Positions 6,790-42,006 of a DNA stretch of 64,000 nucleotides are shown here, piece by piece; position 1 is the stretch's first letter; every line of letters begins with the position of its first letter. Below the pieces are notes generated by a model, which was not told the origin of the DNA, ran no database searches, and saw only the letters and a program-made list of their open reading frames with translations. Location of the stretch: assembly GCA_038064195.1 (NCBI GenBank), contig JBBTTO010000002.1, positions 539,722 through 603,721 of the forward strand, written 5' to 3'. Both the position numbers and the translations under genes were made by a program. The DNA comes from Patescibacteria group bacterium. GTDB lineage: Bacteria > Patescibacteriota > Microgenomatia > Levybacterales > UBA12049.

Positions 6790-7968
6790 ATGCTTATACG
6801 TCCTCAGACGTCAAATTTCGCCAAAATCCGTGTCATTGGAGTTGGTGGTGGAGGCGGAAATGCCGTCACTTCGATGATCACCCATAACAACATTCAAGGT
6901 GTTGATTTTGTCTCAATCAATACTGACGCCCAGGCTCTCCTTCGTAACCCCGCCATGACCAAGGTCCAAATCGGTGAAAACCTCACCAAAGGTTTGGGTT
7001 CAGGTGGAGATCCTGAGATAGGTCGTCAGGCTGCTGAGGAGTCGGCTGAGAAGATCAAAGATATGCTGGAGGGATCAGACATGGTCTTTTTGACAGCCGG
7101 GATGGGCGGAGGATCAGGTACAGGGGCCACATCTATTATTGCCAAAATTGCCAAAGAGGTAGGAGCTCTGACTGTCGCAGTTGTTACCAAGCCGTTCTCT
7201 TTTGAAGGCACTCGACGCATGGTCGCGGCTGAGGAGGGAATTGAAAGTCTTAAAGATAAAGTAGATACACTCATTGTTATCCCCAACCAGCGCATCATGG
7301 ATGTCGTTGACCGCAAGCTCTCACTTCTTGAGGCCTTCAAAGTTGCGGATTCTGTTCTCTCCCAGGGAGTCCAGGGTATCTCTGAAATCATTACGCTTCC
7401 CGGGTTAATCAATGTTGATTTTGCCGATATTCGGACCATTATGTCTAACGCCGGCTCGGCGCTCATGGGTATTGGGACGGGGATAGGCGAGAACAGGGCG
7501 CAAGCTGCCGCCAGAGCGGCCATTGCTTCACCTCTTTTGGAGGTAACGATGGATGGTGCTCGGGGAGTACTGTTCAATATAGTTGGCGGTAACGACCTGA
7601 CAATGACTGAGGTCGATGAAGCAGCCAAGATCATCTCAACCTCAGCCGACCCCGATGCCAACATTATTTTCGGCGCGACCATCGATGAATCGATGCATGA
7701 TCAGATCCGTATTACTGTAGTCGCAACTGGTTTTGATCAGACCAAGCAACGCCTGCAGCAGTTCGTCGCACCCCATTATGCGCCGCAAAAGCCTGTCAGT
7801 GAATACAACCCGCTTGTTGTGAACAGCGGCACGATGAGTAGTAACGGATCGGGTATTACCCGGGAGGAAGAGAGAATAGAGCCTGAGCCTCAGTCATCTG
7901 AGCCAGCACCCAAAGAATCAGATGAAGATAAATGGGACATCCCTGCATTCCTCAGGCAGAGAAATTGA
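6790..7968 (+). CDS. ftsZ: Cell-division GTPase FtsZ
   Basis: [10 protein letters not shown] tubulin signature and the conserved C-terminal tail ...[10 protein letters not shown]-stop. Confidence 0.95.
7939..7966 (+). repeat. Copy A of the 28-nt core ATCCCTGCATTCCTCAGGCAGAGAAATT. This is the genuine ftsZ 3' end, encoding IPAFLRQRN.
   Basis: Identical 28-mer recurs at 9715-9742. Diverged copies at 38118, 40030 and 41987. Confidence 0.9.
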
Positions 7969-8068
7969 CTTTCAGTTTTCATATTGCCTCCCTATTAACC
8001 CGCGGCTAAACGATTAGCAAGAGCATAAAACATATCGAATCATCTCATCCTTTTGATATACTGCAGTA

Positions 8069-8725
8069 GTGAATGAATATTTTAATACAGAAGTTGTAAC
8101 CTCCACCTTACGAAAGATGGTAGATGTTCTTGAAGAAAACAATATCGAATATCGTTTTTTAGGTTCTGTTGTTATTGCTGCTATTAATGGTCGTTTACAT
8201 CGAAATTTGGGGGATTTAGACTTCGTGATTGATTCTGAGGGGCGGGAGGTATTATATAAACACCTAAAACATTTCGGATTTAAACCCGCTCCTGGAATGT
8301 TTGCATTTGCTCGTAAATACCTGTGCTTAGAGCAGTTTACTCATGATGACTTTCTTGGGGTAGGGTACTTTTATGGGAAGTTTCAGCAAGATGGCTCATT
8401 CATTATGGGTAATAAGCAGTCGAATGTAAGAGTAGATGCTTTTGCACTAGAAAAGACGAAGTATACTCTTGGTGGGGTAAGTTTTATGGGTATTCCTCAA
8501 AGAGCAGCTGCTGCAGGTGTAAAAGAATCTGAATCAAACCCAAAGAGAAAATTTGAGAAGAAGATTCTAAAAGAGAAGGGCATAGAACCTTTCAAGAACA
8601 ATTACATTCACGTAACTATCTATGGAATAAATGCAGATTGGGTATACCATTTGTCTATGGCAATTCTTAATGTTATAGGAGCAGTAAGAGTAAAATTTGG
8701 TTTGGCATTTGACCCCTGGAGATAG
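8069..8725 (+). CDS. Pol-beta-fold nucleotidyltransferase, Lnu/ANT-like (lincosamide/aminoglycoside nucleotidyltransferase-like)
   Basis: GS-x14-DLDF with HRNLGDLDFVID, which resembles the LnuA-type ...GGWGVDVLTGKQQREHRDIDIDF core. The size (218 aa) fits that family. Confidence 0.45.
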   Translation: MNEYFNTEVVTSTLRKMVDVLEENNIEYRFLGSVVIAAINGRLHRNLGDLDFVIDSEGREVLYKHLKHFGFKPAPGMFAFARKYLCLEQFTHDDFLGVGYFYGKFQQDGSFIMGNKQSNVRVDAFALEKTKYTLGGVSFMGIPQRAAAAGVKESESNPKRKFEKKILKEKGIEPFKNNYIHVTIYGINADWVYHLSMAILNVIGAVRVKFGLAFDPWR

Positions 8726-8783
8726 ATGTAAATAACCTCACCTATGTCGCATTTTCCACTATTGTGCGACGTAATAATAAAAT

Positions 8784-8812
8784 TTGACAAATCAAGAATT
8801 TTAACGTATGCT
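8784..8812 (+). promoter_or_regulatory. Candidate promoter (TTGACA - 17 nt - TATGCT), preceded by the shared motif ATTGTGCGACGT at 8761-8772
   Basis: Hexamers read directly. The same 12-mer occurs at 38380-38391, upstream of another island promoter. Confidence 0.35.
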
Positions 8813-8839
8813 TACCTGAACATAAAGAAGAAAGCTTAG

Positions 8840-9589
8840 ATGAAAGATTACCCATTTAAAACACAAGAGGAAGCAATTAAATATATACAAAAACTATTCA
8901 GACGAATAGGCACTACTCCAGGAGAGAAAGTTTTTTACAAAGAAAGTGGCATGAAATTATACCCACTTCAAAAACTTGGCTTCTCCAATTATGGTCAATT
9001 AGTAAGGGAAGCAGAATTGCCTCCTAATAAGTTTGATAAAACTAAATATACCGAGGATTTTTTAATTAAAGAATTTATAAAAATGATTAGAAAGAATAAA
9101 AAATGGCCTACAAAAGCTGAATTGGATATTAAACACTTTAATGATCCAAATTTTCCTACCTCAGCAACATTCTATAAAAAATTTGGCTTAGTTAAGGGTA
9201 TGGCTGAAAATATCTTAGATTATACCTATGGGAAAAAAGGTTATAAAGACGTGAGAGACATATGCAATGAGATACTCATGAAATATGATAATTCAATGTC
9301 AAATGAAGAAGGAGATTCAAGAAGTGGTTATGTTTATATCCTTAAAAACGGAGGTCGACAAGAATATAAAATCGGGATTAGCGATAGTATACCCAAAAGA
9401 GGAATGCAATTGTCAACATTATCTCCTGAAAATTTAGAATTAATACATTCCATAAAGGCAACTAGTCCTAAAGCTGTTGAAAGATTTCTTCATGACAAAT
9501 TTAATAGCAAAAGAATACAAGGAGAATGGTTTAATCTATCAACGTCCGACATAAAATGGATTAAGAAATGGAACGGAAATGTTCTATAG
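8840..9589 (+). CDS. T5orf172 (GIY-YIG-superfamily) domain protein with two N-terminal homing-endonuclease-associated-type repeats
   Basis: C-terminal GYVYILKNGGRQEYKIGIS...R...L...W motif of the T5orf172/MUG113-like GIY-YIG family. Duplicated ...P..(F/Y)...F..YG repeat units in the N-terminal half. Confidence 0.5.
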   Translation: MKDYPFKTQEEAIKYIQKLFRRIGTTPGEKVFYKESGMKLYPLQKLGFSNYGQLVREAELPPNKFDKTKYTEDFLIKEFIKMIRKNKKWPTKAELDIKHFNDPNFPTSATFYKKFGLVKGMAENILDYTYGKKGYKDVRDICNEILMKYDNSMSNEEGDSRSGYVYILKNGGRQEYKIGISDSIPKRGMQLSTLSPENLELIHSIKATSPKAVERFLHDKFNSKRIQGEWFNLSTSDIKWIKKWNGNVL

Positions 9590-9714
9590 TCCCATACATA
9601 ATTGATCATTGACCTTTCAACTAAAACATCGTAATTTTCCTTAGGTTTTTTTAGTCCATTCGGCAGGCTCAGGATAAATAAGAATTGAAGCTAAAATGAC
9701 TGGATGTCTATAAA

Positions 9715-9742
9715 ATCCCTGCATTCCTCAGGCAGAGAAATT
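9715..9742 (+). repeat. Copy B of the 28-nt ftsZ-tail core (exact repeat of 7939-7966)
   Basis: 28/28 identity with copy A. The upstream context in-frame encodes [14 protein letters not shown]-stop. Confidence 0.9.
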
Positions 9743-10016
9743 AATCTAAAAAATTCCTTACGTAGTTTTTGCAAAGAATGCTATACATAAGCGCGTCTTC
9801 TGCTTTTTTATCAATATCAGAATTAGAAAGAACATTTGGAATGTTATCTAAAATTTTTGCGAAATAAGGTTTGACTTTAGATCTGTTTACCTCCGTAATC
9901 CTTTTCAAAGATTCTTCAGAAAAACGTTCTGCCATCTTTATTGATCTCCTGTGATACCCTATAGCAACACGCATAAGATCCATAGATAGTGATTCTATAG
10001 CTATTTTATTATTCAT
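9741..10016 (-). CDS. Hypothetical small protein (91 aa). Second gene of a two-gene minus-strand pair.
   Basis: ORF only. 4-nt overlap with the upstream 71-aa ORF suggests translational coupling. Its stop abuts repeat copy B. Confidence 0.35.
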   Translation of the reverse strand: MNNKIAIESLSMDLMRVAIGYHRRSIKMAERFSEESLKRITEVNRSKVKPYFAKILDNIPNVLSNSDIDKKAEDALMYSILCKNYVRNFLD

Positions 10017-10228
10017 AATATTTCCTGAAAGAAGAATCGGGTTAATGCATCATATCGTTTTCTAATTTCAGGATCAAGAATCTCATTTCCAGCGTTATTA
10101 TCTGTGGGTCTGATGTTAATAAAGGAATTGAAGTCAATATCTATTACTGTTTTGATGTACGAATCGAACTGTTCTTTTAGATTTTCAATTTCTTTTTTTG
10201 AATAAGGTTCAGCTTTAGTAATAATCAC
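10013..10228 (-). CDS. Hypothetical small protein (71 aa)
   Basis: ORF only, coupled to the 91-aa ORF. Divergent from the 10384 gene. Confidence 0.35.
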   Translation of the reverse strand: MIITKAEPYSKKEIENLKEQFDSYIKTVIDIDFNSFINIRPTDNNAGNEILDPEIRKRYDALTRFFFQEIL

Positions 10229-10337
10229 TCAGATAGTTTAGCATATTATCCTCGTAATTTTAAAAATGATTATGAGTAAAGTACTCTACCACAAATTCAA
10301 TCCTGCGCGACATGGATGAGCTAATAACGTTGAGTTA

Positions 10338-10366
10338 TTGAATTATTACCCCAGCCACTATATAAT
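10338..10366 (+). promoter_or_regulatory. Candidate promoter (TTGAAT - 17 nt - TATAAT)
   Basis: Consensus-like hexamers 18 nt before the ATG at 10384. Confidence 0.35.
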
Positions 10367-10383
10367 TGCCGAAAAGAACATAT

Positions 10384-11157
10384 ATGGAAAGATTTAGAAG
10401 GTTGGTCACAAGAAGAGTTCCTACAGTTGGAGAACCACCCTTAAGCATCGCAGAAGTACCTCCATCGGTTTCAGCTACTACAGCCGCACAATCGGAAACC
10501 AGAGCAAGTGAAGTTTTAGACCAAGAAAGGAAGCAATGGGAGGCTGCGTATATCGGTAGAGACTTCTTGGGTAAACGGGAATATCTGTTATCACTTGCTT
10601 TGCGGGATGACCCTTTAAAAAGAATTTACGCAGCTCTTGGAATTAATGATTTAGGGGCAGAGATTGACATTCCTCTTACTGACCTTACTCCCCAAGAAGA
10701 GTTAGCTCGGGATGCATACTTAAAAGCAACTTTTTTCGGTGAGGTTGATCCAGATAAATACCATGAATTTGCGACTGACTCATTTACAAAAGATCACTTA
10801 CTAGCGCTATTAAATAGAAATGCGGCAGGTGTCCAACCAGGCGATGTTACTGATTGGTTCCACACAACTTTTGGAGTAACCCATCTTGAACGATATGGAT
10901 CTGTTTATATTGGCTCGCATGGTGGATTAGGTGAATATGGGTATGACCACAATGCAACGATTAGCCCTTTAAAACGAGATCATGATTCTAGGCAGAGAGA
11001 TGAGACTGAGGAAATGTCGATGGGGAAAGCTATTGATTTTGCTCATGTTGTTCGTAAATCACTGCCGCATATAGATATGGTACCCTTAGCAATTCCTACC
11101 TACCTCCAAGACGCACAGGATGCTTTACAATTCCTTCCCCGAGATTGGGCAGCATAA
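10384..11157 (+). CDS. Hypothetical protein (the ORF track starts at a TTG at 10366 inside the -10; the ATG at 10384 is preferred)
   Basis: ORF with unusual composition (higher GC, Ala/Pro/Glu-rich N-terminus). No recognisable domain. Confidence 0.5.
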   Translation: MERFRRLVTRRVPTVGEPPLSIAEVPPSVSATTAAQSETRASEVLDQERKQWEAAYIGRDFLGKREYLLSLALRDDPLKRIYAALGINDLGAEIDIPLTDLTPQEELARDAYLKATFFGEVDPDKYHEFATDSFTKDHLLALLNRNAAGVQPGDVTDWFHTTFGVTHLERYGSVYIGSHGGLGEYGYDHNATISPLKRDHDSRQRDETEEMSMGKAIDFAHVVRKSLPHIDMVPLAIPTYLQDAQDALQFLPRDWAA

Positions 11158-11310
11158 GTTCTGATCTTAATACCTCTTGTCATCCTTTTTCAAAGAGCAC
11201 AAAACTTGTTGACTTTGCTTCTTGTTATTGTTACATTCAAGATGTCATAAGATGACAAAGAAATGCCATAAGAAATTTACGGTATTTCTTAAGGGCATGA
11301 AGCTAAAAAG

Positions 11311-11340
11311 CGGGCTCGCTAAGCAGGCGGCCCGTGTTTT
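11311..11340 (+). terminator. Weak rho-independent terminator candidate (CGGGC - 14-nt loop - GCCCG followed by TGTTTT)
   Basis: Hairpin plus T-run read from the sequence. Confidence 0.25.
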
Positions 11341-11365
11341 AAGACAAAGGAATTAAATCTTCTCC

Positions 11366-11394
11366 TTGTTCCCTCATTATCTTTTCAATATAAT
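11366..11394 (+). promoter_or_regulatory. Candidate promoter (TTGTTC - 17 nt - TATAAT). The ATG at 11402 is 7 nt after the -10, so the transcript would be leaderless.
   Basis: Hexamers read directly. Confidence 0.3.
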
Positions 11395-11401
11395 CCAACT
11401 C

Positions 11402-12334
11402 ATGCGTGAGAGAGATGGAAATGGTGTGTCCAGACGGGCAATTCTTGGCGCTGCTCTTGATAAAACAATTTCTCAAGACCCCCTTATCGGAAGAGCCGCG
11501 GATATACTTGCGCCTGAGACCAGACCTCAAGTTCAAAGACTCCGCGAGTTGCAAGAAGGTGTAGAGAATATCCCAACACAGATAATTGCTTCAGCTATAG
11601 GAGATGTTATTAAACTTTATCCGATAGTTTATCAAGTCGATAGTTTGGGGCCAGGTATGAACTATGTCATTGGCGCGGTTCTTCTTCCCTTAGGCTCTGT
11701 AGATGTAGAATTGCAAAATATTTATTGGCACGGAATAATTTACAGCGGTATTGAAAAATCTTCAGTCCATTTCAATCCAGATTCACAGAGTCTTGCAGAA
11801 GTACATATAAATTTTGATGGAAGTGGTGAGGATACAGGTATGTCAAATTATGGAGCAGCTGAGGATTTTAATCCTTTAATACAAATGAGCAGAGAAGAGT
11901 CTGATCTCTATGGTGAGGAGCTTGATAACCAAGGATTTCTGAACTTTGACCAGAGTATTATTTTAGAAGCTATTTATCAAGCAGTCGTCTATGGCGAGAG
12001 AAGTACCTATTGGCAAGATACTGTTGTGCCGATGCTCAGGATGGATGAATTAACCGCATTTAATAGGGCATGGCACGAGGGGTTATTGCGCTCGCGTAAT
12101 ATTGATCCCGAGTTATTTGAAGTTGTTAGTCGGCAGCTACCTATAAGAGAAAGTATGGAGCTTATTAAATCTGGAGGTAGAATAAAAAGATTGGATGCCA
12201 TGAGATATCTGGGTCGTGAAGCAACAAGGCGAGCTCGGGATTTGCTTGTGCCAAGGAATGAAGCTGGAGATTCACTGAGGCAGCTTAATGGTAGAATCAT
12301 TTTTAATGAAACTGATTTTGAAATTGATGAGTAG
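11402..12334 (+). CDS. Hypothetical protein (310 aa from the ATG at 11402)
   Basis: ORF with higher GC than surroundings. No recognisable domain. Confidence 0.5.
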   Translation: MRERDGNGVSRRAILGAALDKTISQDPLIGRAADILAPETRPQVQRLRELQEGVENIPTQIIASAIGDVIKLYPIVYQVDSLGPGMNYVIGAVLLPLGSVDVELQNIYWHGIIYSGIEKSSVHFNPDSQSLAEVHINFDGSGEDTGMSNYGAAEDFNPLIQMSREESDLYGEELDNQGFLNFDQSIILEAIYQAVVYGERSTYWQDTVVPMLRMDELTAFNRAWHEGLLRSRNIDPELFEVVSRQLPIRESMELIKSGGRIKRLDAMRYLGREATRRARDLLVPRNEAGDSLRQLNGRIIFNETDFEIDE

Positions 12335-12400
12335 TTTTTTTATATACTATCGCGTATTTCTACGGCAGAGGAACTAGCTTCAGATTAATCCCGGCAATTA

Positions 12401-13426
12401 CTATTTTGTAAATAGGAGCTGTAAGAATTCTTTATATCCTCTTTTAAATCTTCTTCGCGTCGCTACTTCAAGCATAAGTTCAATCATTGCTACAAATAAC
12501 AACCAGTAAACAAAAATAGCTATTTTCTGACTGATATATATATTACCAGATATATACGCTGCAAAGGACAAAAATATTAATACACCTGATACTAAAAAAG
12601 TTACCTCACTTCGTAAACGATAGATTAAAATACCCATCATCCAAATTATTCCAAATATACGGAAATCCTGCAGCACAAGCGAATTAAATTCAGGTGAAAA
12701 CGTCATAAAGATAATAAGAAGTGAAAGATAAAAATAATTTACTTTGGCACCGAGATTTTTATTAAACAGAGCGAAAAATACATAAAAAATGAAAGGAGTG
12801 AGATGAAGTAATTGTTGAGCTGAATCTGCTACATTTGAAGAGGGTTTTGTTGTTTTTCTTTCAATAAAATTAACTGTATCACCAATATTTAGTAGGGCAT
12901 ATTTTATGGAGTATTTGTATTTAGTGACAAAAATTTGTTCATGTGGAGAAACATAGATTGCATCATCCTTTTTACCCAGCGTTGATTCGATCTGAAAATC
13001 ATACGTTTTCCCTTTTGAGTTGACAATTACCGGAAAGCCGAAGGTAAAAAGTTGATTATCCTGGAATTGGTCAACTTTATAATTTGCTTGATAATACCAG
13101 TCTCTTTCACCTTTTTCTTTTATCTTAAAAATAAGGATGTCATTACCTGCTCGTTTATAAGTGCCAAACCTTATCGCGAGGATTCCCAAATTGTTTGAGT
13201 GTGCGACGAACTCTCCGGTTATTATTTCCCCTTTCATAAGAGGTGTTTTAATCGGAGCAATTATATCTTTTTGAGTTTTTGGGTAAGCAATTATTGAAAC
13301 TGGCTCGCTTGTATCGAAGTTACGAAAAAAATAAAGAAAAAAACCAAATAGGAGAAGAGCACAAGGAATAATGAGCCATTTTAAGAGCAGATAAAAGAAA
13401 TGATGTGTTTTCATAACAAGTAACAA
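12401..13426 (-). CDS. Hypothetical integral membrane protein
   Basis: Multiple hydrophobic segments. No motif recognised. Confidence 0.45.
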   Translation of the reverse strand: MLLVMKTHHFFYLLLKWLIIPCALLLFGFFLYFFRNFDTSEPVSIIAYPKTQKDIIAPIKTPLMKGEIITGEFVAHSNNLGILAIRFGTYKRAGNDILIFKIKEKGERDWYYQANYKVDQFQDNQLFTFGFPVIVNSKGKTYDFQIESTLGKKDDAIYVSPHEQIFVTKYKYSIKYALLNIGDTVNFIERKTTKPSSNVADSAQQLLHLTPFIFYVFFALFNKNLGAKVNYFYLSLLIIFMTFSPEFNSLVLQDFRIFGIIWMMGILIYRLRSEVTFLVSGVLIFLSFAAYISGNIYISQKIAIFVYWLLFVAMIELMLEVATRRRFKRGYKEFLQLLFTK

Positions 13427-18857: not shown

Positions 18858-20168
18858 ATGGGTAAGCTAACACACAAAGTTGCCCTGTTATCATTAACAA
18901 TTCTTTTCTTCTTTTCCACCTCGGTTGCTCCTGCGCTGGCTGCAATTACTTACCTTTATGATGCCAACGGTAATCTGACATCCGACGGGAGCAAATGTTA
19001 TGAGTACAATCAGGAAAATCAATTGGTCAAAGTTAAGACGTGTGGCAACAGTCAGACTATCGCCGAGTATGTCTATGATTATCAAGGTCAGCGATTAGTC
19101 AAAAAAGAATACAGTAACGGTACGCTGCAAAAGACCACTTTTTCTCCCGGCGATTCATATGAAACCGTAAAGTTAGTAAGCGGTACGACGCAAAACACTT
19201 CATATTATTTTGCCAATGATGAGCTCATCGCTAAGAAAAATCCCGATGGCTCAAAAAATTATTTCCTCACTGATCACTTAGGCTCTGATTCCGTCCAGAC
19301 AAATCAAACCGGGACATCGGTTGAGTCTACTCAATACGATCCGTGGGGAGAAGTATTGGCTGGAGGAACGAAAAATAAATTCCAGTACACAGGTCAGGAA
19401 AAAGACAGTGAGACAGGGCTCAACTACTACAACGCGCGCTACTACGATCCCCACACCCGCCATTTTACCCAGGCAGATGGGTTAGTGCAGGACATTTATG
19501 ATCCACAACTACTTAACAGATACGCTTACGTACGTAATAATCCGATCAAATATTCAGATCCAAGTGGAAACTTTGTTTTCTTGGCTGTACCTCTAACAAT
19601 GTGGGTGGTAGCAGCATTCTTAGGTGGTTCAGCAGTCTATACTGCAACTCCTCAGGGACAAAAAACAGTTCAGAGTGCACTTAGATCGGCTTATCAAGGA
19701 GCCAATAGTTTAGTATCACAGTCTAGGAACGCTGTATCGAATGTATCAAAAGCAATAGCTAATTCTACAAAAACTGGATCTCAATCTACCAACCCGTCCA
19801 ACTCTTCTCCAAAGAATAACTCACCATATGGGAAGAGTCCAAACTTAGGGCCAATTCAAAAAATAGCACCACTCGCTCCAGCAGCAGAACAGGCAATCGA
19901 AAAAATCCATGGTAACGATCTCAGAAATTCTTTGAATACAATTGGTTACACCTTGAGAGATACAGGTTCCGGGGTCATTCAAAAATTCGGTATAACCTCA
20001 AATCAAGCGAGTAGATATTCCCAAACTTATCTCAATTCAAATAAGCTTGAGCTTGTACAAGAGGTTGAGGGCTCCAGGCATGATGTTTATGTCTGGGAGC
20101 ATGAGCAAATAGGAGAGTACTTAATGAAGAATTTAGAATTACCTTCACTTAATAAGTCATTGCATTAG
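18858..20168 (+). CDS. Secreted short RHS protein: signal peptide, a few YD repeats, RHS repeat-associated core, and a variable C-terminal toxin domain
   Basis: Signal peptide. YD repeats (YLYDANGNLTSDG...). Rhs core ...GLNYYNARYYDPHTRHFTQADGL...NRYAYVRNNPIKYSDPSGN (TIGR03696-type). This is followed by a ~200-aa unrelated C-terminal domain with a hydrophobic helix. Confidence 0.7.
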   Translation: MGKLTHKVALLSLTILFFFSTSVAPALAAITYLYDANGNLTSDGSKCYEYNQENQLVKVKTCGNSQTIAEYVYDYQGQRLVKKEYSNGTLQKTTFSPGDSYETVKLVSGTTQNTSYYFANDELIAKKNPDGSKNYFLTDHLGSDSVQTNQTGTSVESTQYDPWGEVLAGGTKNKFQYTGQEKDSETGLNYYNARYYDPHTRHFTQADGLVQDIYDPQLLNRYAYVRNNPIKYSDPSGNFVFLAVPLTMWVVAAFLGGSAVYTATPQGQKTVQSALRSAYQGANSLVSQSRNAVSNVSKAIANSTKTGSQSTNPSNSSPKNNSPYGKSPNLGPIQKIAPLAPAAEQAIEKIHGNDLRNSLNTIGYTLRDTGSGVIQKFGITSNQASRYSQTYLNSNKLELVQEVEGSRHDVYVWEHEQIGEYLMKNLELPSLNKSLH

Positions 20169-20170
20169 TT

Positions 20171-20581
20171 ATGAGATTTTTTATTACATCAGAAAACCAT
20201 ACAACTATAGCAGATAAGGTGAGATCTGTTCGTAATTCGATTGGACAGAAAATTAGTAAAATGGCTGAAATGAAAGATTATGGACAAAGCGTTAGTTATT
20301 GGGGCCATATCTCAATTGTAAATCCTTCTAGTGTATATGATAAGGGTTTCTATCCTGAAGTTAAAAAATATTCTGGTAGTAAAAAAGAGGTCGAGCTTCG
20401 ATTGAAAATAGACTATGATGATGTCGTTAATGGTGACGAGAAAAAGTTATATACACTTTTTACGGATTCAATTCTTAGAGGAGTTCATATCGCAGAATCT
20501 GAATTAAAAATTGATGACTTTGATTTCAAAAGATTTAGAGCAGATTTAAATGAACTGTTTAGTAAGGAGGGATGGCTATGA
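20171..20581 (+). CDS. Putative cognate immunity protein of the RHS C-terminal toxin
   Basis: Small cytoplasmic ORF starting 3 nt after the toxin gene. It overlaps the next gene by 10 nt. Assigned by position only. Confidence 0.3.
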   Translation: MRFFITSENHTTIADKVRSVRNSIGQKISKMAEMKDYGQSVSYWGHISIVNPSSVYDKGFYPEVKKYSGSKKEVELRLKIDYDDVVNGDEKKLYTLFTDSILRGVHIAESELKIDDFDFKRFRADLNELFSKEGWL

Positions 20582-23500
20582 GAATATCTTTTGGGATCAT
20601 TAAAGTATTAGTTATAGTATTATTATTCGTAATTGCTAGTGTAACTACGACTTCAGCTGCGATGCAGGTGATTCCGCAAAATAATCCCCCGCAACAACCG
20701 AGGGATAAATTCCAGACAGATCTTTTTACCGGATCAGCTACCTATAGCTATCCTATTAACGTGCCAAAGGGCACCAATGATCTTACCCCCGAAGTTAGCT
20801 TTTCATACAACAATCAAGGCGCACACGACACAACAATGCAAAATGGTCTGGGGTGGCAGTTGGAGCGTGATTATATCCAAAGAGATGTTAATTACTCACC
20901 CTGGAATATTACAGATGACAAGTATAAACTGCATTTCAAAGGCCAGACCTATGATCTTGTCTATAACCCAACCGACAGTCTCTTCCATACAAAACAGGAG
21001 TCATTTCTTAAAATTCAACAATTCTTAACCGGCGGACAAGGGACAACCGGTATGTACTGGCAGGTGACTACTCCCGATGGAACGCTCTACCGTTTCGGTT
21101 ATACTACAAACTCAGCTCTTATTTGTGGCGGTCAGACATATGATGGATCCTGGAATGTGGATCAGGTAACTGATACGCATAACAATCATATCTATTTTAG
21201 CTATTTGCAGACTAATGGTGTTGCCTATCTCAGTCAGATCAAATACAACAACGATCAGCTTAGGGAAGTCAACTTTACCTACACTTCCAACTCTTACCAA
21301 AAGCCTGTCTCAGTCCAGGGATGTAGTATTAACGAGACATCAAAATTGTCTGCTATTTCAATCAAAGCAAGCGGAAGTGTCGTCAGAGGCTATGATCTTA
21401 CATATACAAATGCTTCAAATGGTCAGCCGTTGCTCTCCTCAATAACTGAAAAAGGTTCTGACAGCTCCTCTCCCCCCCCAACCACATTTACCTATAACCC
21501 TTCAAGCTCAGGGAATGGTTCAGGTATTGATTTCACAGGTGGAACAAATATAGATGCGGAGCTCAATCATTCAGATGTTGGTCTTTGTGATATGAACGGT
21601 GATGGGTACGTCGATCTTATAAAAACAACAGGAGGAGGGAATTTCAATTGGAATGTTAAACCAGGCAGTGGTACTGCTTTTGCAGCCACCTGGGTAACTA
21701 TGGCCTCAATTCCTGTTCAGTTAGGCGCTTCCAATATGAGACTTACTGATGTGACAGGGGACGGGAAATGTGATGTGGTTCAGACCGTCTATCGGGGAGG
21801 ACCAAATCCTAATTATGACTGGTTTGTCTGGACCAACACATCCGACAAACAGGCCGGGACACTTTCTTTTAGTGGTCAGACCAAATGGGAAGACAATATT
21901 AACTTTGATCAGGCAGCCGGCCTCACTGATACGAGCCTCACGCTTATCGATATGAATGGTGATGGGCTTTCTGATATTGTGCATGTCGGACAAAACAATG
22001 ACTGGGCAGTCTATCTTAACTTACCGGGACAAAATACCTGGAACAATGACAATACTAACTGGGCGCATGGGGTCTCATCTTTCAATAATCCGAGTACCAG
22101 ACTTGCTGATGTGAATGGTGATGGATTCCCTGATGTCATTATCTCAAGTAGTAACGGGGGGCCAAATGAAACCTATGAGGTTCTTCTTAATAGTGGTGGC
22201 TCACTCATGCCTTCTAAGAAATGGATTGATAATGCGAGTGTTGATGCCATTGATTTCAGTAATCACAACGTAGTTATTGCCGATGTCAATGGAGATGGAC
22301 TCCCTGATATTGTGCGGGGCAATGGCTTTAATTCAAGTAATACCAGTGCCCATTGGCAGGTATTACTTAATATGGGAGATCATTTTTCTACAACTATTAC
22401 TACCTGGTTTGATGCGACTATGAATGGGAGTAATGACTTTGACTTAGTTAAAGTTGTCGATCTCAATGGTGATGGTCTGACAGATGTTCTCAATCAGGCT
22501 TTTGGTTCATGGCAGGGTTATATTTCCCAGGGTTTTGCTCCTAATGCTCTTTATGAAATTACCACATCACAAGGGGGGTATATCGCCTTCGATTATACTC
22601 CGTCCACACGGTATTCTAATGGCAGTAATTTATCGTTCCCTCTTTGGCTGGTTAATAGGATGACTGTGCGGAATGGGCTTCCGGCACCGCACAGTACATC
22701 TGATGTTACAAACTATTTCTATGGAAATGGTAAATACAATGTCCAGCAGAGAGAGTTCCGAGGCTTTGGCAGCGTCAATGAAATATTAGCTAGTGGGACT
22801 AAGAGAGCATATAATTTTAATCAAGACGACGCACTGAAAGGAAGGCTTGCGTTGGAGGCTACCAGGGACACTAATGATAACCTCTACGCACGAACCGATT
22901 ATAGCTGGAGTAATTCACAAAGCAATAGTATTTATACTGTCTTGCTACAGTCTCAGCAAAAGTTTACCTATGATGGTGCGGGTGCAAATGCAAAGATCAT
23001 CCAGACTGATTATACGTATGATATCTTCGGGAATATTACCAAAACCTCAGAACTCGGTGATACGAGTTTAACAGGAGATGAGCGCTTCACTTACTCAGAG
23101 TATGCCTCAAATCCGACTCTTTGGCTGGTTAGCACTCCGAAACATACGTATAAAAGAGCAGCCGACGACACGACTAAACTCTCAGAGTCATGGTTTTACT
23201 ATGACGGTCATACAGGTCTTGATGACGCACCGACGAGAGGTGATGTCACGAAAGAAGTTAAATGGCTTAATACAGCCTCCGTAAATCCGACTATTCTTTC
23301 TGAGTATGATGCGTTTGGTAATCTTATTAAAGTAACTGATGCCAATAGTCACATTACGGGGTATCACTATGGTACGAGTGATACCACCTCAACATACCCT
23401 GACAATTCAACCAACGCCAAAAATCAAATAACTTCATACCTGTATGATCTCGGGACTGGCAACCTCCTTTCATCGTCTGATCCGAACGGATTTATCACTT

Positions 23501-26500
23501 CTTATCTGTATGATACTTTCGGCAGACTCAGCAAGGAGATCAAACCATATGATACCGCCAGCTTCCCAACGACTAGTTATCAATATTTTACTGATGGAGT
23601 AGCTCCTGAGGGTATCCTGGTTGCCAAACGTCAGACCAGCGGAGCTGCAGGAACACTTGATACCTATACCTGGGCTGATGGACTCGGAAGGGTTCTTCAG
23701 ACACGTGCACCTGCAGAGAATACTTCTCAGCAGATCGTAGTTGATTCATTCTATGGGCCAAGTAGTAAGGTAATTAAGCAAACAGTGCCTTATTTGACGA
23801 CGCTGAGTGCTGCGTATGCAACGCCTGTGAGTGGAGTAAGGGCGACAACAACGGTCTATGATCCGCTTGATCGGCCGACACTTGTAACCAATCCCAACGG
23901 GACGACTCGCACTACAGCGTATGATCACTGGAAAGTCAGTACAACTGATGAGAATAGTCATGTCGTGAATAAGATTTTCAACGCTTTTGACAAAATAATC
24001 AGAATTGAAGAGATTGTGGCCTCACTCCCACAAGTCACCACGTATGCTTACAATGGGTTAGACAATTTGATCGCGATTACCGATAGCGCGGGTAACAATT
24101 TTTCACTCTCCTATGACTCATTGGGTAGACGAGTTACTCAAGTCGATCCGGATTTGGGTACATGGCGCTATGAATATGATAGTGTCGGAAATCTGACGAA
24201 AAGAACAGATAATCGTAATATAGCGATTGTGAAAAACTATGATGAGTTAGATCGCTTGACTAAAGTAGATTATCCAACTGATACCGATATCACGTATACC
24301 TATGATGGTAATACGAGGATTGGGAGCCTGACATCTGTCATCGATACAGCCGGGACGATCAACTATACTTATGACAACCGTCTCCGCAAATTATCAGAGC
24401 AACGCACGATCGATGGTACGAGCTGGACGACACAATACGCCTACGATGCGCTTGATCGGATAATGAGCCAAACAAATCCGGATGGCGAGGTGGTAGGGTA
24501 TACCTTTAACTCCCAAGGCGAGATAGATAAAGTGACCGGAATTCTCAACAATATCGACTACAGTGCTTTGGGAAAGATTACTAAAAAAGATTTTGCCAAT
24601 GCTTTGTCTACAGTATATTCGTACAACTCCGATGACTTCCGGCTGCATAACATCAAAACAGGTTCGCTGCAGGATCTGACCTATACATACGATAATGTGG
24701 GGAATATAACAAGTATTGCTAATGCAGTAACGAGTAAGACTCAAAATTTCGGTTACGATGATCTGAACAGGTTGCTTACAGCTTCGCTCACCGGAGGCTA
24801 TAATTATGCTTACAGCTACAACGCAATCGGTAATTTACTGACATTCAATAATGGTTCAGCCACTATTAATTACACATATGGCCAGAATGTCGGGGTACAT
24901 GCCCTGACCACCTCTTCCGAAACTGCAGTAGCTACACCGACGCCGACTCCAACGTCCACCCAACCTACGCCCACTCCGACACCATTACCTGGGGGCGGGA
25001 CTGAACTCCTGGGTACGATCTGGACGCTCTCAGGCAATAATAGTGACGCACAGAATGATAAAGTAATTACTTCCAATTCTCTTAACGGGATGACATCGGC
25101 TCAGGTTACGTTCAATTTACATGGCAAGACATTCGGCACAGGAGACGATGAAGCATCAATTATCTTTATTCAAAATGGAGTATGGCTGGCAGCAAATGTC
25201 ACCAAATTCGGTGCTCAAAATGGTTTGGATGGTTTACAAACGGTAACGATCCCCTTGACAAGCTTCCATAAGGTTAATGATGCAAGTGTAACCCTCGATC
25301 CGAGTCAGCCAGTCTCAAATCTGCATGCCAGGTTCTGGAATAGTTTTTCATTCACAGTCGATATTACGAGCGTTAAAGTCACAGCAGTGACGAGTACTCT
25401 TCAGTCTCAGGGTAAACCAATCGTCGCATCGACACAAAAGACGGGATATGAGGCCACAAAAGCCAATGATGGCAATATTGGTTCGTACTGGGAAGGAGTG
25501 GATCATGCCTTTCCAGCTTCGCTTACGGTGGATTTGGGAGCAGTCTATTCAGTAGACAAAGTGGTTATGAAGCTTAACTGGGGCGCGAGAACGGAAAATG
25601 TTACGATTTTAGGGAGCACGGATAACACTACTTTCACCACTATCGTTGGAGCTACTAATTATTCTATAGGCAATGTTCCTGTTACCTTTACGTCGCGAAA
25701 TATACGTTATGTACGGATTATGGTTAATGCCAATAGTGTAACGCCTGCTGGACAAATGGCAGAGTTTGAAGTATGGGGACAAGGTTCAGGTGGACCGACT
25801 CCAACCCCTACAGTTCAGCCAACGCCTACACCAACTGCTACACCCACTCCAACACCAACGCCTGCAAGTGGTTATACTGGTCAGTACTATTCAAATAAAA
25901 CACTCTCTGGTTCACCTACGTTGACGAGAAATGATACTGCCATTAATTTTGACTGGGGATCTGGAAGACCCGATCCATTGCTGCCTGTTGATAACTTTTC
26001 CGTACGTTGGAACAGAACCATTAATTTCACAGCCGGTTCATATAAATTCTCGATGACCGGGGATGATGGAGTAAGACTTAAGATAGACGGAGTCACAGTA
26101 ATCGATAAATGGATTGACCAGGGACCAACTACCTATACAACCACCCAACAGTTAACAGCAGGTAACCATACGATAGTTATGGAGTATTACGAAAGTGGTG
26201 GTGGAGCTGTGGCTAAACTCTCCTATCTGGAAGTTCAGGCGCCGACCCCAACGCCTACGCCCTCTGGTAGTGGCACAGAGATACTCGGAACTATCTGGAC
26301 GCTTATCGGCAATAATGGTGCTGCTGAGAGAGACAAAACACTTGCGGCCAATACCTTAAATGGTAAAACATCCGCACAAATTACCTTTGATCTGCATGGT
26401 GCAACTTTCGGCGGGGGAGATGATGAGGCCTCAATTGTTTTCGTCCAAAGCGGCGATTGGCGGGCAGCCAACGTCACTAAGTTCGGGGCGCAAAACGGCT

Positions 26501-26664
26501 TGAATGGGAGTCAGACAGTGACGATCCCATTGACGAGCTTTCACAAAGTAGGCAATGCGGGTATTACTCTTAATCCTGCGCTGTCAGTTTCCAACCTCCA
26601 TGCCAGGTTCTGGAGGAGCTCTTCATTTACTGTTGATATAACCAGCGTCAAGCTCCTCCCCTAA
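20572..26664 (+). CDS. Giant secreted SpvB/TcB-like YD(RHS)-repeat protein. It has FG-GAP-type beta-propeller repeats and C-terminal PT-linkers, a discoidin-like domain, a PA14 domain and two copies of a ~130-aa lectin-like domain. It has no RHS core or toxin tip.
   Basis: Signal peptide. SpvB N-terminal motif DLFTGSATYSYPINVPKG...LGWQL. Repeated D(V/M/L)NGDG(L/Y)(P/T)D units. Many YD repeats (YTYDIFGNITKT, YDSLGRRVTQ..., and others). PA14-like segment (GYTGQYYSN...NFSVRW...). Discoidin-like segment (ANDGNIGSYWEG). Two ~65%-identical C-terminal modules. Confidence 0.8.
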   Translation: MAMRISFGIIKVLVIVLLFVIASVTTTSAAMQVIPQNNPPQQPRDKFQTDLFTGSATYSYPINVPKGTNDLTPEVSFSYNNQGAHDTTMQNGLGWQLERDYIQRDVNYSPWNITDDKYKLHFKGQTYDLVYNPTDSLFHTKQESFLKIQQFLTGGQGTTGMYWQVTTPDGTLYRFGYTTNSALICGGQTYDGSWNVDQVTDTHNNHIYFSYLQTNGVAYLSQIKYNNDQLREVNFTYTSNSYQKPVSVQGCSINETSKLSAISIKASGSVVRGYDLTYTNASNGQPLLSSITEKGSDSSSPPPTTFTYNPSSSGNGSGIDFTGGTNIDAELNHSDVGLCDMNGDGYVDLIKTTGGGNFNWNVKPGSGTAFAATWVTMASIPVQLGASNMRLTDVTGDGKCDVVQTVYRGGPNPNYDWFVWTNTSDKQAGTLSFSGQTKWEDNINFDQAAGLTDTSLTLIDMNGDGLSDIVHVGQNNDWAVYLNLPGQNTWNNDNTNWAHGVSSFNNPSTRLADVNGDGFPDVIISSSNGGPNETYEVLLNSGGSLMPSKKWIDNASVDAIDFSNHNVVIADVNGDGLPDIVRGNGFNSSNTSAHWQVLLNMGDHFSTTITTWFDATMNGSNDFDLVKVVDLNGDGLTDVLNQAFGSWQGYISQGFAPNALYEITTSQGGYIAFDYTPSTRYSNGSNLSFPLWLVNRMTVRNGLPAPHSTSDVTNYFYGNGKYNVQQREFRGFGSVNEILASGTKRAYNFNQDDALKGRLALEATRDTNDNLYARTDYSWSNSQSNSIYTVLLQSQQKFTYDGAGANAKIIQTDYTYDIFGNITKTSELGDTSLTGDERFTYSEYASNPTLWLVSTPKHTYKRAADDTTKLSESWFYYDGHTGLDDAPTRGDVTKEVKWLNTASVNPTILSEYDAFGNLIKVTDANSHITGYHYGTSDTTSTYPDNSTNAKNQITSYLYDLGTGNLLSSSDPNGFITSYLYDTFGRLSKEIKPYDTASFPTTSYQYFTDGVAPEGILVAKRQTSGAAGTLDTYTWADGLGRVLQTRAPAENTSQQIVVDSFYGPSSKVIKQTVPYLTTLSAAYATPVSGVRATTTVYDPLDRPTLVTNPNGTTRTTAYDHWKVSTTDENSHVVNKIFNAFDKIIRIEEIVASLPQVTTYAYNGLDNLIAITDSAGNNFSLSYDSLGRRVTQVDPDLGTWRYEYDSVGNLTKRTDNRNIAIVKNYDELDRLTKVDYPTDTDITYTYDGNTRIGSLTSVIDTAGTINYTYDNRLRKLSEQRTIDGTSWTTQYAYDALDRIMSQTNPDGEVVGYTFNSQGEIDKVTGILNNIDYSALGKITKKDFANALSTVYSYNSDDFRLHNIKTGSLQDLTYTYDNVGNITSIANAVTSKTQNFGYDDLNRLLTASLTGGYNYAYSYNAIGNLLTFNNGSATINYTYGQNVGVHALTTSSETAVATPTPTPTSTQPTPTPTPLPGGGTELLGTIWTLSGNNSDAQNDKVITSNSLNGMTSAQVTFNLHGKTFGTGDDEASIIFIQNGVWLAANVTKFGAQNGLDGLQTVTIPLTSFHKVNDASVTLDPSQPVSNLHARFWNSFSFTVDITSVKVTAVTSTLQSQGKPIVASTQKTGYEATKANDGNIGSYWEGVDHAFPASLTVDLGAVYSVDKVVMKLNWGARTENVTILGSTDNTTFTTIVGATNYSIGNVPVTFTSRNIRYVRIMVNANSVTPAGQMAEFEVWGQGSGGPTPTPTVQPTPTPTATPTPTPTPASGYTGQYYSNKTLSGSPTLTRNDTAINFDWGSGRPDPLLPVDNFSVRWNRTINFTAGSYKFSMTGDDGVRLKIDGVTVIDKWIDQGPTTYTTTQQLTAGNHTIVMEYYESGGGAVAKLSYLEVQAPTPTPTPSGSGTEILGTIWTLIGNNGAAERDKTLAANTLNGKTSAQITFDLHGATFGGGDDEASIVFVQSGDWRAANVTKFGAQNGLNGSQTVTIPLTSFHKVGNAGITLNPALSVSNLHARFWRSSSFTVDITSVKLLP
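24999..25392 (+). repeat. Internal coding repeat unit 1 (~130-aa module GTELLGTIWTLSGNN...FTVDITSVKV)
   Basis: Paralogous to 26266-26661 at both DNA (~75%) and protein level. Confidence 0.7.
26266..26661 (+). repeat. Internal coding repeat unit 2 (GTEILGTIWTLIGNN...FTVDITSVKL)
   Basis: Paralogous to 24999-25392. Confidence 0.7.
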
Positions 26665-40007: not shown

Positions 40008-40059
40008 AAAAGTAGGGGATGACTCATGAATCCCCGCATTCCTCAGACAGCGTAATTAA
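40008..40059 (+). repeat. Copy C: AAAAGTAGGGGATGACTCATGA + ATCCCCGCATTCCTCAGACAGCGTAATTAA. The core still encodes IPAFLRQRN-stop via synonymous changes.
   Basis: 25/30 nt identity to the ftsZ end, with all differences synonymous in the FtsZ reading frame. The 5' flank is shared with copy D. Confidence 0.7.
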
Positions 40060-40125
40060 CTAGTTTTAGCTTCAACTTTCTAGTAAGCACCTTAGGGTGC
40101 TTTTTTAATTGTCATAGTTTCAGCA

Positions 40126-40798
40126 CTACCAATATACAATGTCGCCTTTAGCTGTGTATAAAACGATTTTAAAAAATCTACTTTGATCAACAATAACTTT
40201 TCTTATATATGAAGGTTTTATTGATATTTTCGAGATGGATTCATCGAGATTGAAAAGGTCTCTGTTGGCAAGAACGAACTTTCTCACTTTTGTCTCTTCA
40301 TTGTTAATAACACCATCTCTATGGACAAGAATGTTTCTGATCTCAATATAACGTTGAAGTGTAGTAAGAAGCTCATCTGAAAGTGAAGTTATATTTGGGT
40401 GATTGGATTTCTGTAGAAGCTCTCTAAACCATTTTTCGAAGAGGCTCATTTTATGTTCATGTTTAGGATTGTATGTTATTGAAGGGTTATTTTTCGAAAT
40501 TGTTCTGGAGATAAGATCAATATGCTTTTCAAATGCAGTGTTGAGTGTAATTCCCAAACCACTTAGCAAATTCCTTTCCAGCTCAGATATCATAAATGAG
40601 TCGTCTGAAAAGGAGTCGATTCGTGATTGGTAATACTCTTCGTTCTTAATTCGTTCATGCTCGTTTTCATTTATCCACTGTTGTGCAGAAACTTCGAGCT
40701 CGTCCTTTTTTTTTAGATATTAGTTCTTCAATTTCTCCAAGAACAAAAATACTTGTTTCAAAGTCAAAGTGAGGGTCAATAAATGATATTATTGGCAT
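40126..40798 (-). pseudogene. HEPN-like (R-x4-H) protein gene, apparently frameshifted at an A9 tract (plus-strand T9 at 40712-40720). The annotated 155-aa ORF (40126-40593) is the downstream frame. An ATG at 40798 opens the upstream frame 8 nt after the PIN gene stop.
   Basis: Frames traced by hand. MPIISFIDPHFDFETSIFVLGEIEELISKKK then shifts +1 into ...DELEVSAQQWINENEHE...MISELERNLL.... With 8 rather than 9 A the two frames fuse into a ~225-aa protein. EIRNILVHRDG matches the HEPN Rx4-6H motif. Confidence 0.45.
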
Positions 40799-40804
40799 TT
40801 TCTT

Positions 40805-41929
40805 CTAAAATATAGTGTAGATTTCCTCACAATTAGGACAAACTTCACCAAATTTTACTTCTCCAGAAGCACAATACCCGCAAGTTTTATCAATTTTTAT
40901 GTCAGGTTTATAGAATGAGCTATATTTTGCTAATAGTTCTTCGGGTATTATCTCCTGATATTTCTCAATAAGATGACTAAAGAATGTTTTGACGTCATCA
41001 TCTTCTATAATCAGCAGTATTTGGTCATTATCTAGGCCAGCTTGAAGCATCTTACATACTTCATTATCGGAAAAGTTAGTAAATAATGATAATCTTCTAA
41101 GAACAGCATGTGTTGTTGCGAATGATGGGCTTTCTACTAAGATTTGAACATAAGGCTCATGTTCTAATTCACTTGCGAGTTTTATATTTGGGAAGTGCTG
41201 ACTGAAAAATGCAGAGAGGGTAGTGTAAAAGAAGATTTGAGAGTTTTTTTCTTGATTCCATTCTTCTTGTAGGAAATCTGAAATTGCTTCAGCACTAATC
41301 TTAGAAATATAGTCTTTATCTTTTGCAATCAAATGTAATCCTTCCTCGTCTGGAACTGCGCTTAGAAGGCTTTCCCAATTTATTGAATCACCATAAGAGC
41401 CATCTTTGCCAGGTGGGTTTCCTATTTCATATCTACGTCTTGCTTGGTTTAGCAACTCAGAAGTAGTAGGGATAACCTTAGCAAGATTAAACAAGTTAAG
41501 AATTAGCTTGTCAGCATCTAAAGACTTATTTTCTATATCTACATGAACTTTTTGAAGGAGTTGATCTTTTGTCCGTATATAATCCCCAATGAGCGATTTT
41601 AGTTTGGAGTATTCTTGATAATCGTGGACGAACCTAGGAAATGAGTCAGGAATTGATTGAACACTCATTACTTTGAGAGAACTGGCAATCTTTGCCTCCC
41701 TATTTCTCCGATACTCGCCTATTGTTTGTTGAGGAACAAAAAGATTTATTTTCTTAGCTTTGATAGCTACCTCTAGTTTTCTAAGTTCTTCAATATCATC
41801 TTTAGAAAAATCATAGAATGTTAAATAAATATTTGTGTCGATAAACAAATTCATGAGCTCTATTATATCACTTGATTGACTTTCATTAGCTTTGCTGTTA
41901 AATTCTTTTCTAAGACATAAGAAAGTCAT
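40805..41929 (-). CDS. PIN-like nuclease domain protein with a C-terminal CxxC...CxxC zinc ribbon
   Basis: N-terminal LFIDTNIYL (PIN first-Asp motif), downstream acidic residues including GKDGSYGDSINW, and C-terminal CGYCASGEVKFGEVCPNCEE. Confidence 0.45.
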   Translation of the reverse strand: MTFLCLRKEFNSKANESQSSDIIELMNLFIDTNIYLTFYDFSKDDIEELRKLEVAIKAKKINLFVPQQTIGEYRRNREAKIASSLKVMSVQSIPDSFPRFVHDYQEYSKLKSLIGDYIRTKDQLLQKVHVDIENKSLDADKLILNLFNLAKVIPTTSELLNQARRRYEIGNPPGKDGSYGDSINWESLLSAVPDEEGLHLIAKDKDYISKISAEAISDFLQEEWNQEKNSQIFFYTTLSAFFSQHFPNIKLASELEHEPYVQILVESPSFATTHAVLRRLSLFTNFSDNEVCKMLQAGLDNDQILLIIEDDDVKTFFSHLIEKYQEIIPEELLAKYSSFYKPDIKIDKTCGYCASGEVKFGEVCPNCEEIYTIF

Positions 41930-41964
41930 TTCTTAATAGGTGTCTTTTAGGAGTTTTTAAGGCT

Positions 41965-42006
41965 AAAAGTAGGGGACAACTAATGAATTCCCGCATTTCT
42001 AAGACG
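41965..42006 (+). repeat. Copy D: AAAAGTAGGGGACAACTAATGA + ATTCCCGCATTTCTAAGACG. The core encodes IPAFLRR.. (synonymous changes plus loss of one codon).
   Basis: Aligns with copy C over ~45 nt. Overlaps the stop of the 41999-42745 gene. Confidence 0.6.

Follow-up and report, generated by a model that had tools for sequence, protein, structure and literature searches.

A 1.75-kb cassette encoding a nucleotidyltransferase and a T5orf172 protein is inserted at the 3′ end of ftsZ in a bacterium of the Levybacterales (Patescibacteria, also known as the candidate phyla radiation, CPR). The stretch of DNA analyzed here, referred to as the window, comprises 64,000 nucleotides (nt) of contig JBBTTO010000002.1 (forward-strand positions 539,722 to 603,721), and positions are counted from its first letter. 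The cassette (cassette A, 7969-9714) is bounded by two perfect copies of the ftsZ terminus, and a second cassette (cassette B) is stacked behind it at the same site. Copies of the ftsZ terminus recur in related genomes, where they are linked to tyrosine integrases and to a short upstream arm motif. We conclude that cassette A was probably placed by site-specific integration at a bacterial attachment site (attB) formed by the ftsZ terminus, through an integrase that either acted in trans or has since been lost.

Two cassettes stacked at the 3′ end of ftsZ

The window carries the division genes murG, an ftsQ-like gene, ftsA and ftsZ, all on the forward strand and ending with ftsZ at position 7968. 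The ftsZ gene (6790-7968, +) is intact and encodes a protein of 392 amino acids (aa) which matches the Pfam families Tubulin (6e-50) and FtsZ_C (2.5e-36) and is 98% identical to P0073 and 94% identical to P0074. Its final nine codons encode IPAFLRQRN, the conserved C-terminal peptide. These 27 nt together with the first base of the stop codon constitute repeat copy 1 (7939-7966, +; attL-like). The window contains exactly two occurrences of the corresponding 28-mer, ATCCCTGCATTCCTCAGGCAGAGAAATT, at 7939-7966 and at 9715-9742; the latter, copy 2 (+), marks the junction of cassettes A and B. No match with up to 3 mismatches was obtained in 100 shuffles, and no further site within 3 mismatches was found in the window. 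In either copy, the IPAFLRQRN codons run into a stop codon, which is TGA in copy 1, where a "GA" from the left end of cassette A (7967-8068, +) completes it, and TAA in copy 2, where "AA" follows the repeat. The likeness between the two copies breaks off abruptly at the edges of the repeat, with no added similarity outside it and no terminal inverted repeats at the ends of cassette A. The exact 28-mer had no match among the JGI metagenome contigs. An imperfect inverted repeat noticed by eye within the 28-mer was dropped because the other copies do not conserve it. A dif/Xer-type site, considered on account of the 28-nt length, was also dropped; the repeat is coding sequence and does not seem to resemble dif sites.

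The state of the locus before insertion was apparent from a relative, L123, whose FtsZ is 94% identical. There, only 24 nt separate ftsZ from the stop codon of the next gene, which is convergent and encodes 341 aa. The convergent gene is a homologue of the window gene at 12401-13426 (−), the native convergent neighbour of ftsZ, which encodes a 341-aa membrane protein. The window is collinear with the empty site of L123 from position 12353 onward, that is, from within the final 28 nt of the L123 ftsZ. Because the alignment starts inside this ftsZ terminus, 12349-12377 (+) was recognized as a third copy of the ftsZ end (copy 3, attR-like), representing the displaced and decayed ancestral terminus. 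Copy 3 still reads FLRQRN followed by a TAG stop, and the 7 differences from copy 1 in this part are all synonymous. It was missed by the 3-mismatch window search and was seen only through the comparison with the empty site. It is followed by the ancestral ftsZ-downstream spacer (CTTCAGATTAAT..., 12378-12400, +), also collinear with the empty site of L123, and then by the neighbour gene. The perfect 28-nt repeats around a 1.75-kb insert at the ftsZ 3′ end, described in an earlier note made from the window sequence, are thus upheld by the exact repeat and by the empty site.

The features thus follow one another in the order ftsZ, copy 1, cassette A, copy 2, cassette B, copy 3, ancestral spacer and neighbour, and the presence of a third ftsZ-end copy means that a single site is occupied by a stack of two cassettes. 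Cassette B (9743-12348) contains four open reading frames (ORFs). They encode proteins of 91 aa (9741-10016, −; no family match), 71 aa (10013-10228, −; a partial match to DUF5674), 263 aa (10366-11157, +) and 322 aa (11366-12334, +), the last two having no family or PDB match, and none of the four gave a noteworthy match in Pfam, NCBIfam, PHROG, PADLOC or the PDB sequences. The interval between ftsZ and the convergent neighbour also holds other genes in L121 (FtsZ 98% identical), L016 (87%), L126 (81%) and L017 (79%). Since its contents differ in every relative examined, we regard this interval as a hot spot, with gene 12401-13426 on its far side.

Cassette A itself contains two genes. No terminator-like site was detected between ftsZ and the nucleotidyltransferase gene (7967-8068) and the promoter-like match in this segment was weak; the first gene may be expressed by read-through transcription from the division operon. 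A promoter-like site (TTGACA, 17 nt, TATGCT; 8784-8812, +) precedes the T5orf172 gene, as a match to the consensus only. The G+C content of the insert is 33.8%, compared with 44.6% for the upstream division and cell wall (dcw) genes and 40.2% for the window. Base composition is not decisive for a foreign origin, however, since native neighbours are equally low in G+C (32.1% for gene 12401-13426).

The ftsZ-terminus site in other genomes and its link to integrases

To find further sites of this kind, the sequence downstream of ftsZ in 82 loci was scanned for repeats of the terminal 28-mer of each gene. In L019, a member of the Levybacteria (FtsZ 74% identical), three copies of the terminus were found with the same left boundary as in the window, at the Ile codon. 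The 6-kb island enclosed by these copies begins with a tyrosine integrase gene (Phage_integrase, 3.2e-32) which starts 158 nt past the ftsZ stop codon, and its cargo includes SLFN_AlbA_2 and a trypsin-like protease. A 42%-identical integrase is encoded directly 3′ of ftsZ in L028. A degenerate codon pattern retrieved an IMG/VR contig (UViG_3300027835_000014) with two mimics of the ftsZ terminus, one of which is adjoined by a 44%-identical integrase; a second integrase is located on the opposite side, and Mrr_cat is among the cargo. The 10.8 kb of this contig that were analyzed showed no ftsZ, and an FtsZ search against IMG/VR found no relative.

A scan at the peptide level also picked up inverted copies in L016 and in L017, as well as another pair of sites within the window. 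The second window locus (40030-42005, +, or 40008-42005 when delimited more widely) lies 32 kb from ftsZ and contains two orphan mimics of the ftsZ terminus with the arm motif. Mimic X1 (40030-40059) reads IPAFLRQRN followed by a stop, while mimic X2 (41987-42005) matches over 19 nt and then diverges. They have in common about 25 nt of upstream sequence which includes the arm motif, and the downstream flank of X1 matches the site on the IMG/VR contig over 45 nt. Between them are a PIN_12 nuclease gene (40805-41929, −) and an accompanying 155-aa ORF. The inverted orphan copies of the host FtsZ terminus in L016 (about 10842-10868, −) and L017 (about 10559-10585, −) are located 1.4 to 1.7 kb downstream of ftsZ and bracket cargo genes, which in L017 resemble toxin-antitoxin pairs, including a Doc-type toxin, as judged by eye only. 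Such inverted sites could let the enclosed segment flip.

Short duplications of the ftsZ end were also observed in L083 and L071, which are Paceibacterota and Peribacteria genomes. In L083 (5333-5425 and 5642-5734) the duplicated end is part of a near-perfect repeat of about 90 nt that includes a hairpin. In L071 (4130-4159 and 4359-4388) the copy has four differences, comprising three synonymous codon changes and the stop codon, all silent. The repeat pairs enclose about 200 to 220 nt with no obvious gene and are perhaps a scar or a miniature element.

Two properties of the copies bear on their origin. Over eight copy pairs, 51 nucleotide differences led to a single amino acid change (simulated P ≤0.002 per pair), and the orphan copy of L017 retains the host-specific Q-K-N ending. 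Because the differences are nearly all synonymous, the copies diverged under constraint to encode the FtsZ terminus, which fits a replacement end carried by an element rather than duplication in place followed by decay. The other property is a 12-nt arm motif, TTGAAGCTAAAA, which occurs in this form or as its reverse complement 33 to 35 nt upstream of the Pro codon in six of nine orphan copies. These six include the right repeat of cassette A; here the motif (9685-9696, +) precedes the Pro codon of copy 2 by 33 nt, which places it in register with its counterparts at the orphan ftsZ-end copies of other genomes. The motif was found in 1.8% of random 48-mers, giving a P value of about 2.5e-9 that is somewhat optimistic because the motif was defined from the same sequences; its in-register positions are nevertheless hard to dismiss. 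Cassette A has the target directly repeated at its two ends, the unoccupied site is seen in a relative, and the attachment-site architecture, in left boundary and arm motif, is in common with the autonomous members.

The nucleotidyltransferase and the T5orf172 protein

The first gene of cassette A (8069-8725, +) encodes a 218-aa protein whose GTG start is backed by the N termini of its homologues. The protein has a Pol-beta-type nucleotidyltransferase fold, and its nearest solved relatives are the lincosamide enzyme LnuA (PDB 4wh5 and 4fo1) and the aminoglycoside enzyme ANT(2″)-Ia (PDB 4xje and 4wqk), with the LnuA/ANT(2″)-type fold extending across the whole enzyme. It has the G-S...D-x-D catalytic core in common with these two enzymes but is only 13 to 17% identical to them and has about 55 extra C-terminal residues ending in FDPWR. 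LnuA and ANT(2″)-Ia are only slightly closer to it than the MenT1 toxin and FKRP. In an alignment of 35 sequences the catalytic G-[SG]...D-x-D motif was invariant at G32, S33, D49 and D51. Inspection of the same alignment showed E or D at position 88 throughout (E88 in the window protein), and from its position this residue is likely to be the third catalytic carboxylate.

At the level of family profiles the match is confined to the N-terminal 68 or so residues. The window protein scored 19.9 bits against Pfam PF10706, below the cutoff of 21, and 16 bits against NCBIfam Lnu(E), far below the cutoff of 350; PF10706 was matched at an E value of ≤0.01 by 25 of the 35 family members, the best at 1.1e-5. 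The LnuA/ANT-like enzyme proposed in the earlier note is therefore retained in its fold and catalytic core, but not as a member of either profile family above its cutoff. The family is small. We found 62 relatives at 48 to 72% identity, nearly all of 217 aa and ending in an invariant FDPWR, and an exhaustive profile search returned only 96 clusters at an E value of ≤0.001 among 1.84 billion representatives. The relatives are encoded in unrelated chromosomal contexts, never beside ftsZ or a T5orf172 gene; in a genome of the same lineage the nucleotidyltransferase gene and ftsZ are on one 225-kb contig, not within 10 kb of each other. As a member of a small conserved family with such contexts, the gene is atypical of mobile resistance genes, and no evidence was found that the nucleotidyltransferase is a clinically relevant resistance gene. 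Two kinds of gene recur next to members of the family, one for an HXXEE membrane protein (at 5 loci) and the other for an ABC exporter (at 3 loci).

We suggest that the protein is a predicted enzyme with an intact catalytic motif which most likely nucleotidylates a small molecule, the main alternative being a MenT-like toxin role. In the search for new substrate specificities in the LnuA/ANT(2″) fold, this family offers a tractable candidate. The HXXEE protein, of about 115 aa, is encoded beside the nucleotidyltransferase in L003 and L004 (6704-7051), L096 (2819-3178), L097, L100 and L107, and at three loci the nucleotidyltransferase gene also comes after that for an ABC exporter; a functional partnership is possible, the HXXEE gene being absent from the window. 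In two metagenome contigs (L116, 2495-3152; L117, 1973-2630) the homologue is split into two ORFs, by either a frameshift or a sequencing error.

The second gene (8840-9589, +) encodes a 249-aa protein with a GIY-YIG-type nuclease domain at residues 163 to 244. This region scored 54.3 bits against MUG113 (cutoff, 22.3) and 42.3 bits against T5orf172 (cutoff, 20), and the domain match was also obtained in all ten relatives found, so that the C-terminal T5orf172 domain reported in the earlier note stands. The GIY-YIG-type residues G163, V165, Y166, Y176, G179 and R187 are invariant, and position 229 is E or D before an invariant W230-F231; roles can be assigned to these residues by analogy. The same note had claimed two homing-endonuclease-associated-type repeats, but these are weak in the window protein. 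Its N-terminal half is helical and gave a single weak HNH_repeat match (E value of 0.012, below the cutoff), and the two halves align with each other at an E value of 0.069; 5 of the 10 relatives matched HNH_repeat, the best at 3.8e-6. A fold search of the full-length model (predicted template modeling score [pTM] of 0.39) against the PDB returned no significant match, giving only weak local ones to Slx1. The T5orf172 region also matches the PADLOC defense candidate PDC-S57 (7e-8).

Each of the ten relatives is located in a different context, for example after UDG or after a class I aminoacyl-tRNA synthetase gene (Pfam tRNA-synt_1c). No convincing flanking repeats were found around them, and DNA similarity to the nearest relative is limited to the ORF. 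The window gene is located within a repeat-bounded cassette. In L014, a 52-nt direct repeat (96% identical; 2161-2665) surrounds an 82-aa GIY-YIG ORF upstream of a T5orf172 relative, which looks like a separate small insertion. The T5orf172 genes of phages are putative homing endonucleases which cluster by essential genes and have repeated N-terminal DNA-binding modules (PMC10448857). The window protein resembles those of ICP1-like and T5-like phages in its C-terminal nuclease domain, its N-terminal modular DNA-binding region and its free-standing gene beside an essential gene. It differs in having HNH_repeat-like helices instead of CapR-type zinc fingers and in being encoded on the chromosome of a CPR bacterium.

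Probable integration at ftsZ, alternative explanations and related systems

In the mechanism that we favor, the last nine codons of ftsZ would serve as the attB of a family of tyrosine-recombinase integrative elements, both in Levybacteria and in further CPR bacteria. Every such element would bring its own copy of the ftsZ terminus, and the earlier terminus would be pushed downstream as a direct repeat; FtsZ would be preserved upon integration because the element carries this copy. Cassette B would then be the older insertion and cassette A the younger, with the nucleotidyltransferase and T5orf172 genes of the latter as cargo. Since no integrase or fragment of one was found in the window, the two cassettes are read as non-autonomous or decayed members of the family, which may owe their movement to an integrase supplied in trans from another locus or may be remnants without their integrase.

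Several observations weigh against this mechanism. Neither cassette contains an integrase, and tblastn at E values of up to 10 detected no integrase or remnant in the cassettes or elsewhere in the 64-kb window. The integrase-bearing examples belong to different species (FtsZ 74% and 59% identical), whose integrases are only candidates for acting on the window site. The left flank of cassette A bears a weak likeness to the other sites by eye which was not reported by blastn-short, and the optimistic arm-motif statistic has been mentioned above. L121, with the closely related FtsZ, has another insertion with no recognizable repeat. Finally, copies 1 and 2 are 100% identical, whereas the copies of other genomes differ at synonymous sites. 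Such identity fits a recent event with a matching attachment site on the element (attP) but equally fits a target-site duplication.

The latter would arise by a transposition-like or end-joining insertion in which a 28-nt staggered break was filled in, with no site-specific recombinase involved. The perfect identity and sharp bounds of the two copies and the lack of a recombinase in cis agree with this explanation. We nevertheless consider it improbable, as neither a transposase nor terminal inverted repeats were found at the cassette and as the same boundaries occur in independent events and genomes with synonymous differences, which duplication in place cannot yield. A 28-nt duplication is also unusual for known bacterial transposons. 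Still harder to credit is an assembly artifact in which the short repeat falsely joined the cassette to ftsZ. The DNA does come from a metagenome assembly, and the coverage of related assemblies is only about 4×, but two independent ENA assemblies (L001 and L002) have the same structure at 99.7% identity, and their differences are almost all homopolymer deletions, typical of sequencing error. Misassembly is highly unlikely because both junctions agree base for base in the three assemblies; in addition, a 28-nt repeat is below the k-mer length usual in assemblers, and neither the decayed third copy nor the parallels in other genomes depend on this assembly.

Homing, which the earlier note had proposed with the T5orf172 nuclease as its agent, would involve the cutting of cassette-free ftsZ ends and the copying of the cassette during repair, the right 28-nt copy acting as portable homology. 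The putative homing role of the phage T5orf172 genes near essential genes (PMC10448857), the conserved GIY-YIG-type core residues, the differing contexts of the ten relatives and the restriction of DNA similarity to the ORF, as for a gene moving alone, all speak for it. Homing, however, leaves no target duplication, and the relatives lack flanking repeats. Moreover, cassette B, the L019 island, the IMG/VR contig and the 40- to 42-kb locus have the same duplicated terminus, all without a T5orf172 gene, and the right repeat of cassette A has the arm motif common to integrase-associated sites. We therefore think it unlikely that the T5orf172 protein moved cassette A, and homing by this protein does not account for the repeats; its gene may instead be a selfish passenger or encode a defense nuclease. 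A further reading concerns function and is compatible with any insertion mechanism, namely, that the nucleotidyltransferase and the T5orf172 protein form a two-gene antiphage or toxin module. The PDC-S57 match is consistent with this, as is the defense- or toxin-like cargo at such sites (L019, the IMG/VR contig, PIN_12 at 40.8 kb and, by eye, L017). We view it as possible but doubtful, given that the two genes are never neighbours elsewhere, that the nucleotidyltransferase family is well conserved (48 to 72% identity and fixed length) and that the HXXEE and ABC exporter neighbours suit small-molecule handling better.

Site-specific integration at the ftsZ terminus has close parallels. Tyrosine-recombinase islands enter the 3′ ends of tRNA or protein genes and undergo tandem accretion with integrase-less cis-mobilizable elements (CIMEs), the latter described for ICESt1 in Streptococcus thermophilus. 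As in those systems, the 3′ end of the target gene is directly repeated, the element restores the gene, and several elements can share one site, not all of them with an integrase. Among the autonomous members (L019 and the IMG/VR contig) the integrase adjoins the gene-proximal repeat, as in 3′-end islands. The differences are the target, which here is the last nine codons of ftsZ encoding an essential conserved C-terminal peptide, the CPR hosts, the very small cassettes of one to four genes and the lack of an integrase in the window. No report of the last nine ftsZ codons as an integration target was found in the papers searched. Cassette A is thus a known kind of mobile island, without an integrase, at a recurrent and apparently unreported ftsZ-terminus target.

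There are also similarities to integron arrays, in that small cargo cassettes lie between recombination sites with a tyrosine recombinase at one end in some genomes and in that the cassettes may be transcribed by upstream read-through. In contrast to integrons, the sites are coding-sequence mimics with an arm motif and are not obviously attC-like hairpins (no dedicated attC model was run), no IntI-type integrase was identified, and the cassettes are multigene, with genes in both orientations and in some cases with promoter-like sites of their own. We regard as rather unlikely at present a bolder proposal, in which an integron-like system found widely among CPR bacteria would have its anchor in the ftsZ terminus. 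Small cassettes for defense, toxins and detoxification would be shuffled and stacked behind the cell-division operon, and perhaps also turned around, by a tyrosine recombinase dedicated to them; inversion is conceivable because L016 and L017 carry inverted orphan copies. The sites would be synonymous mimics of the FtsZ peptide that restore the gene, read-through expression would be possible, and the nucleotidyltransferase cassette would be one exchangeable unit, possibly with a new small-molecule-modifying enzyme.

To our knowledge, few integrative elements have been described in the CPR or Patescibacteria, where genomes are tiny and the workings of mobile elements are little known. If the ftsZ terminus is a recurrent docking site, accessory and defense cargo across CPR phyla could be traced with a simple marker, accompanied by arm motifs that are easily recognized and by an integrase family to match. 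Such a site would also clearly exemplify an element obliged to bring along an accurate copy of the coding end for an essential peptide. Elsewhere in the window, a 2,030-aa ORF (20572-26664) is preceded by a gene for a 436-aa protein with an RHS-repeat match (18858-20168).

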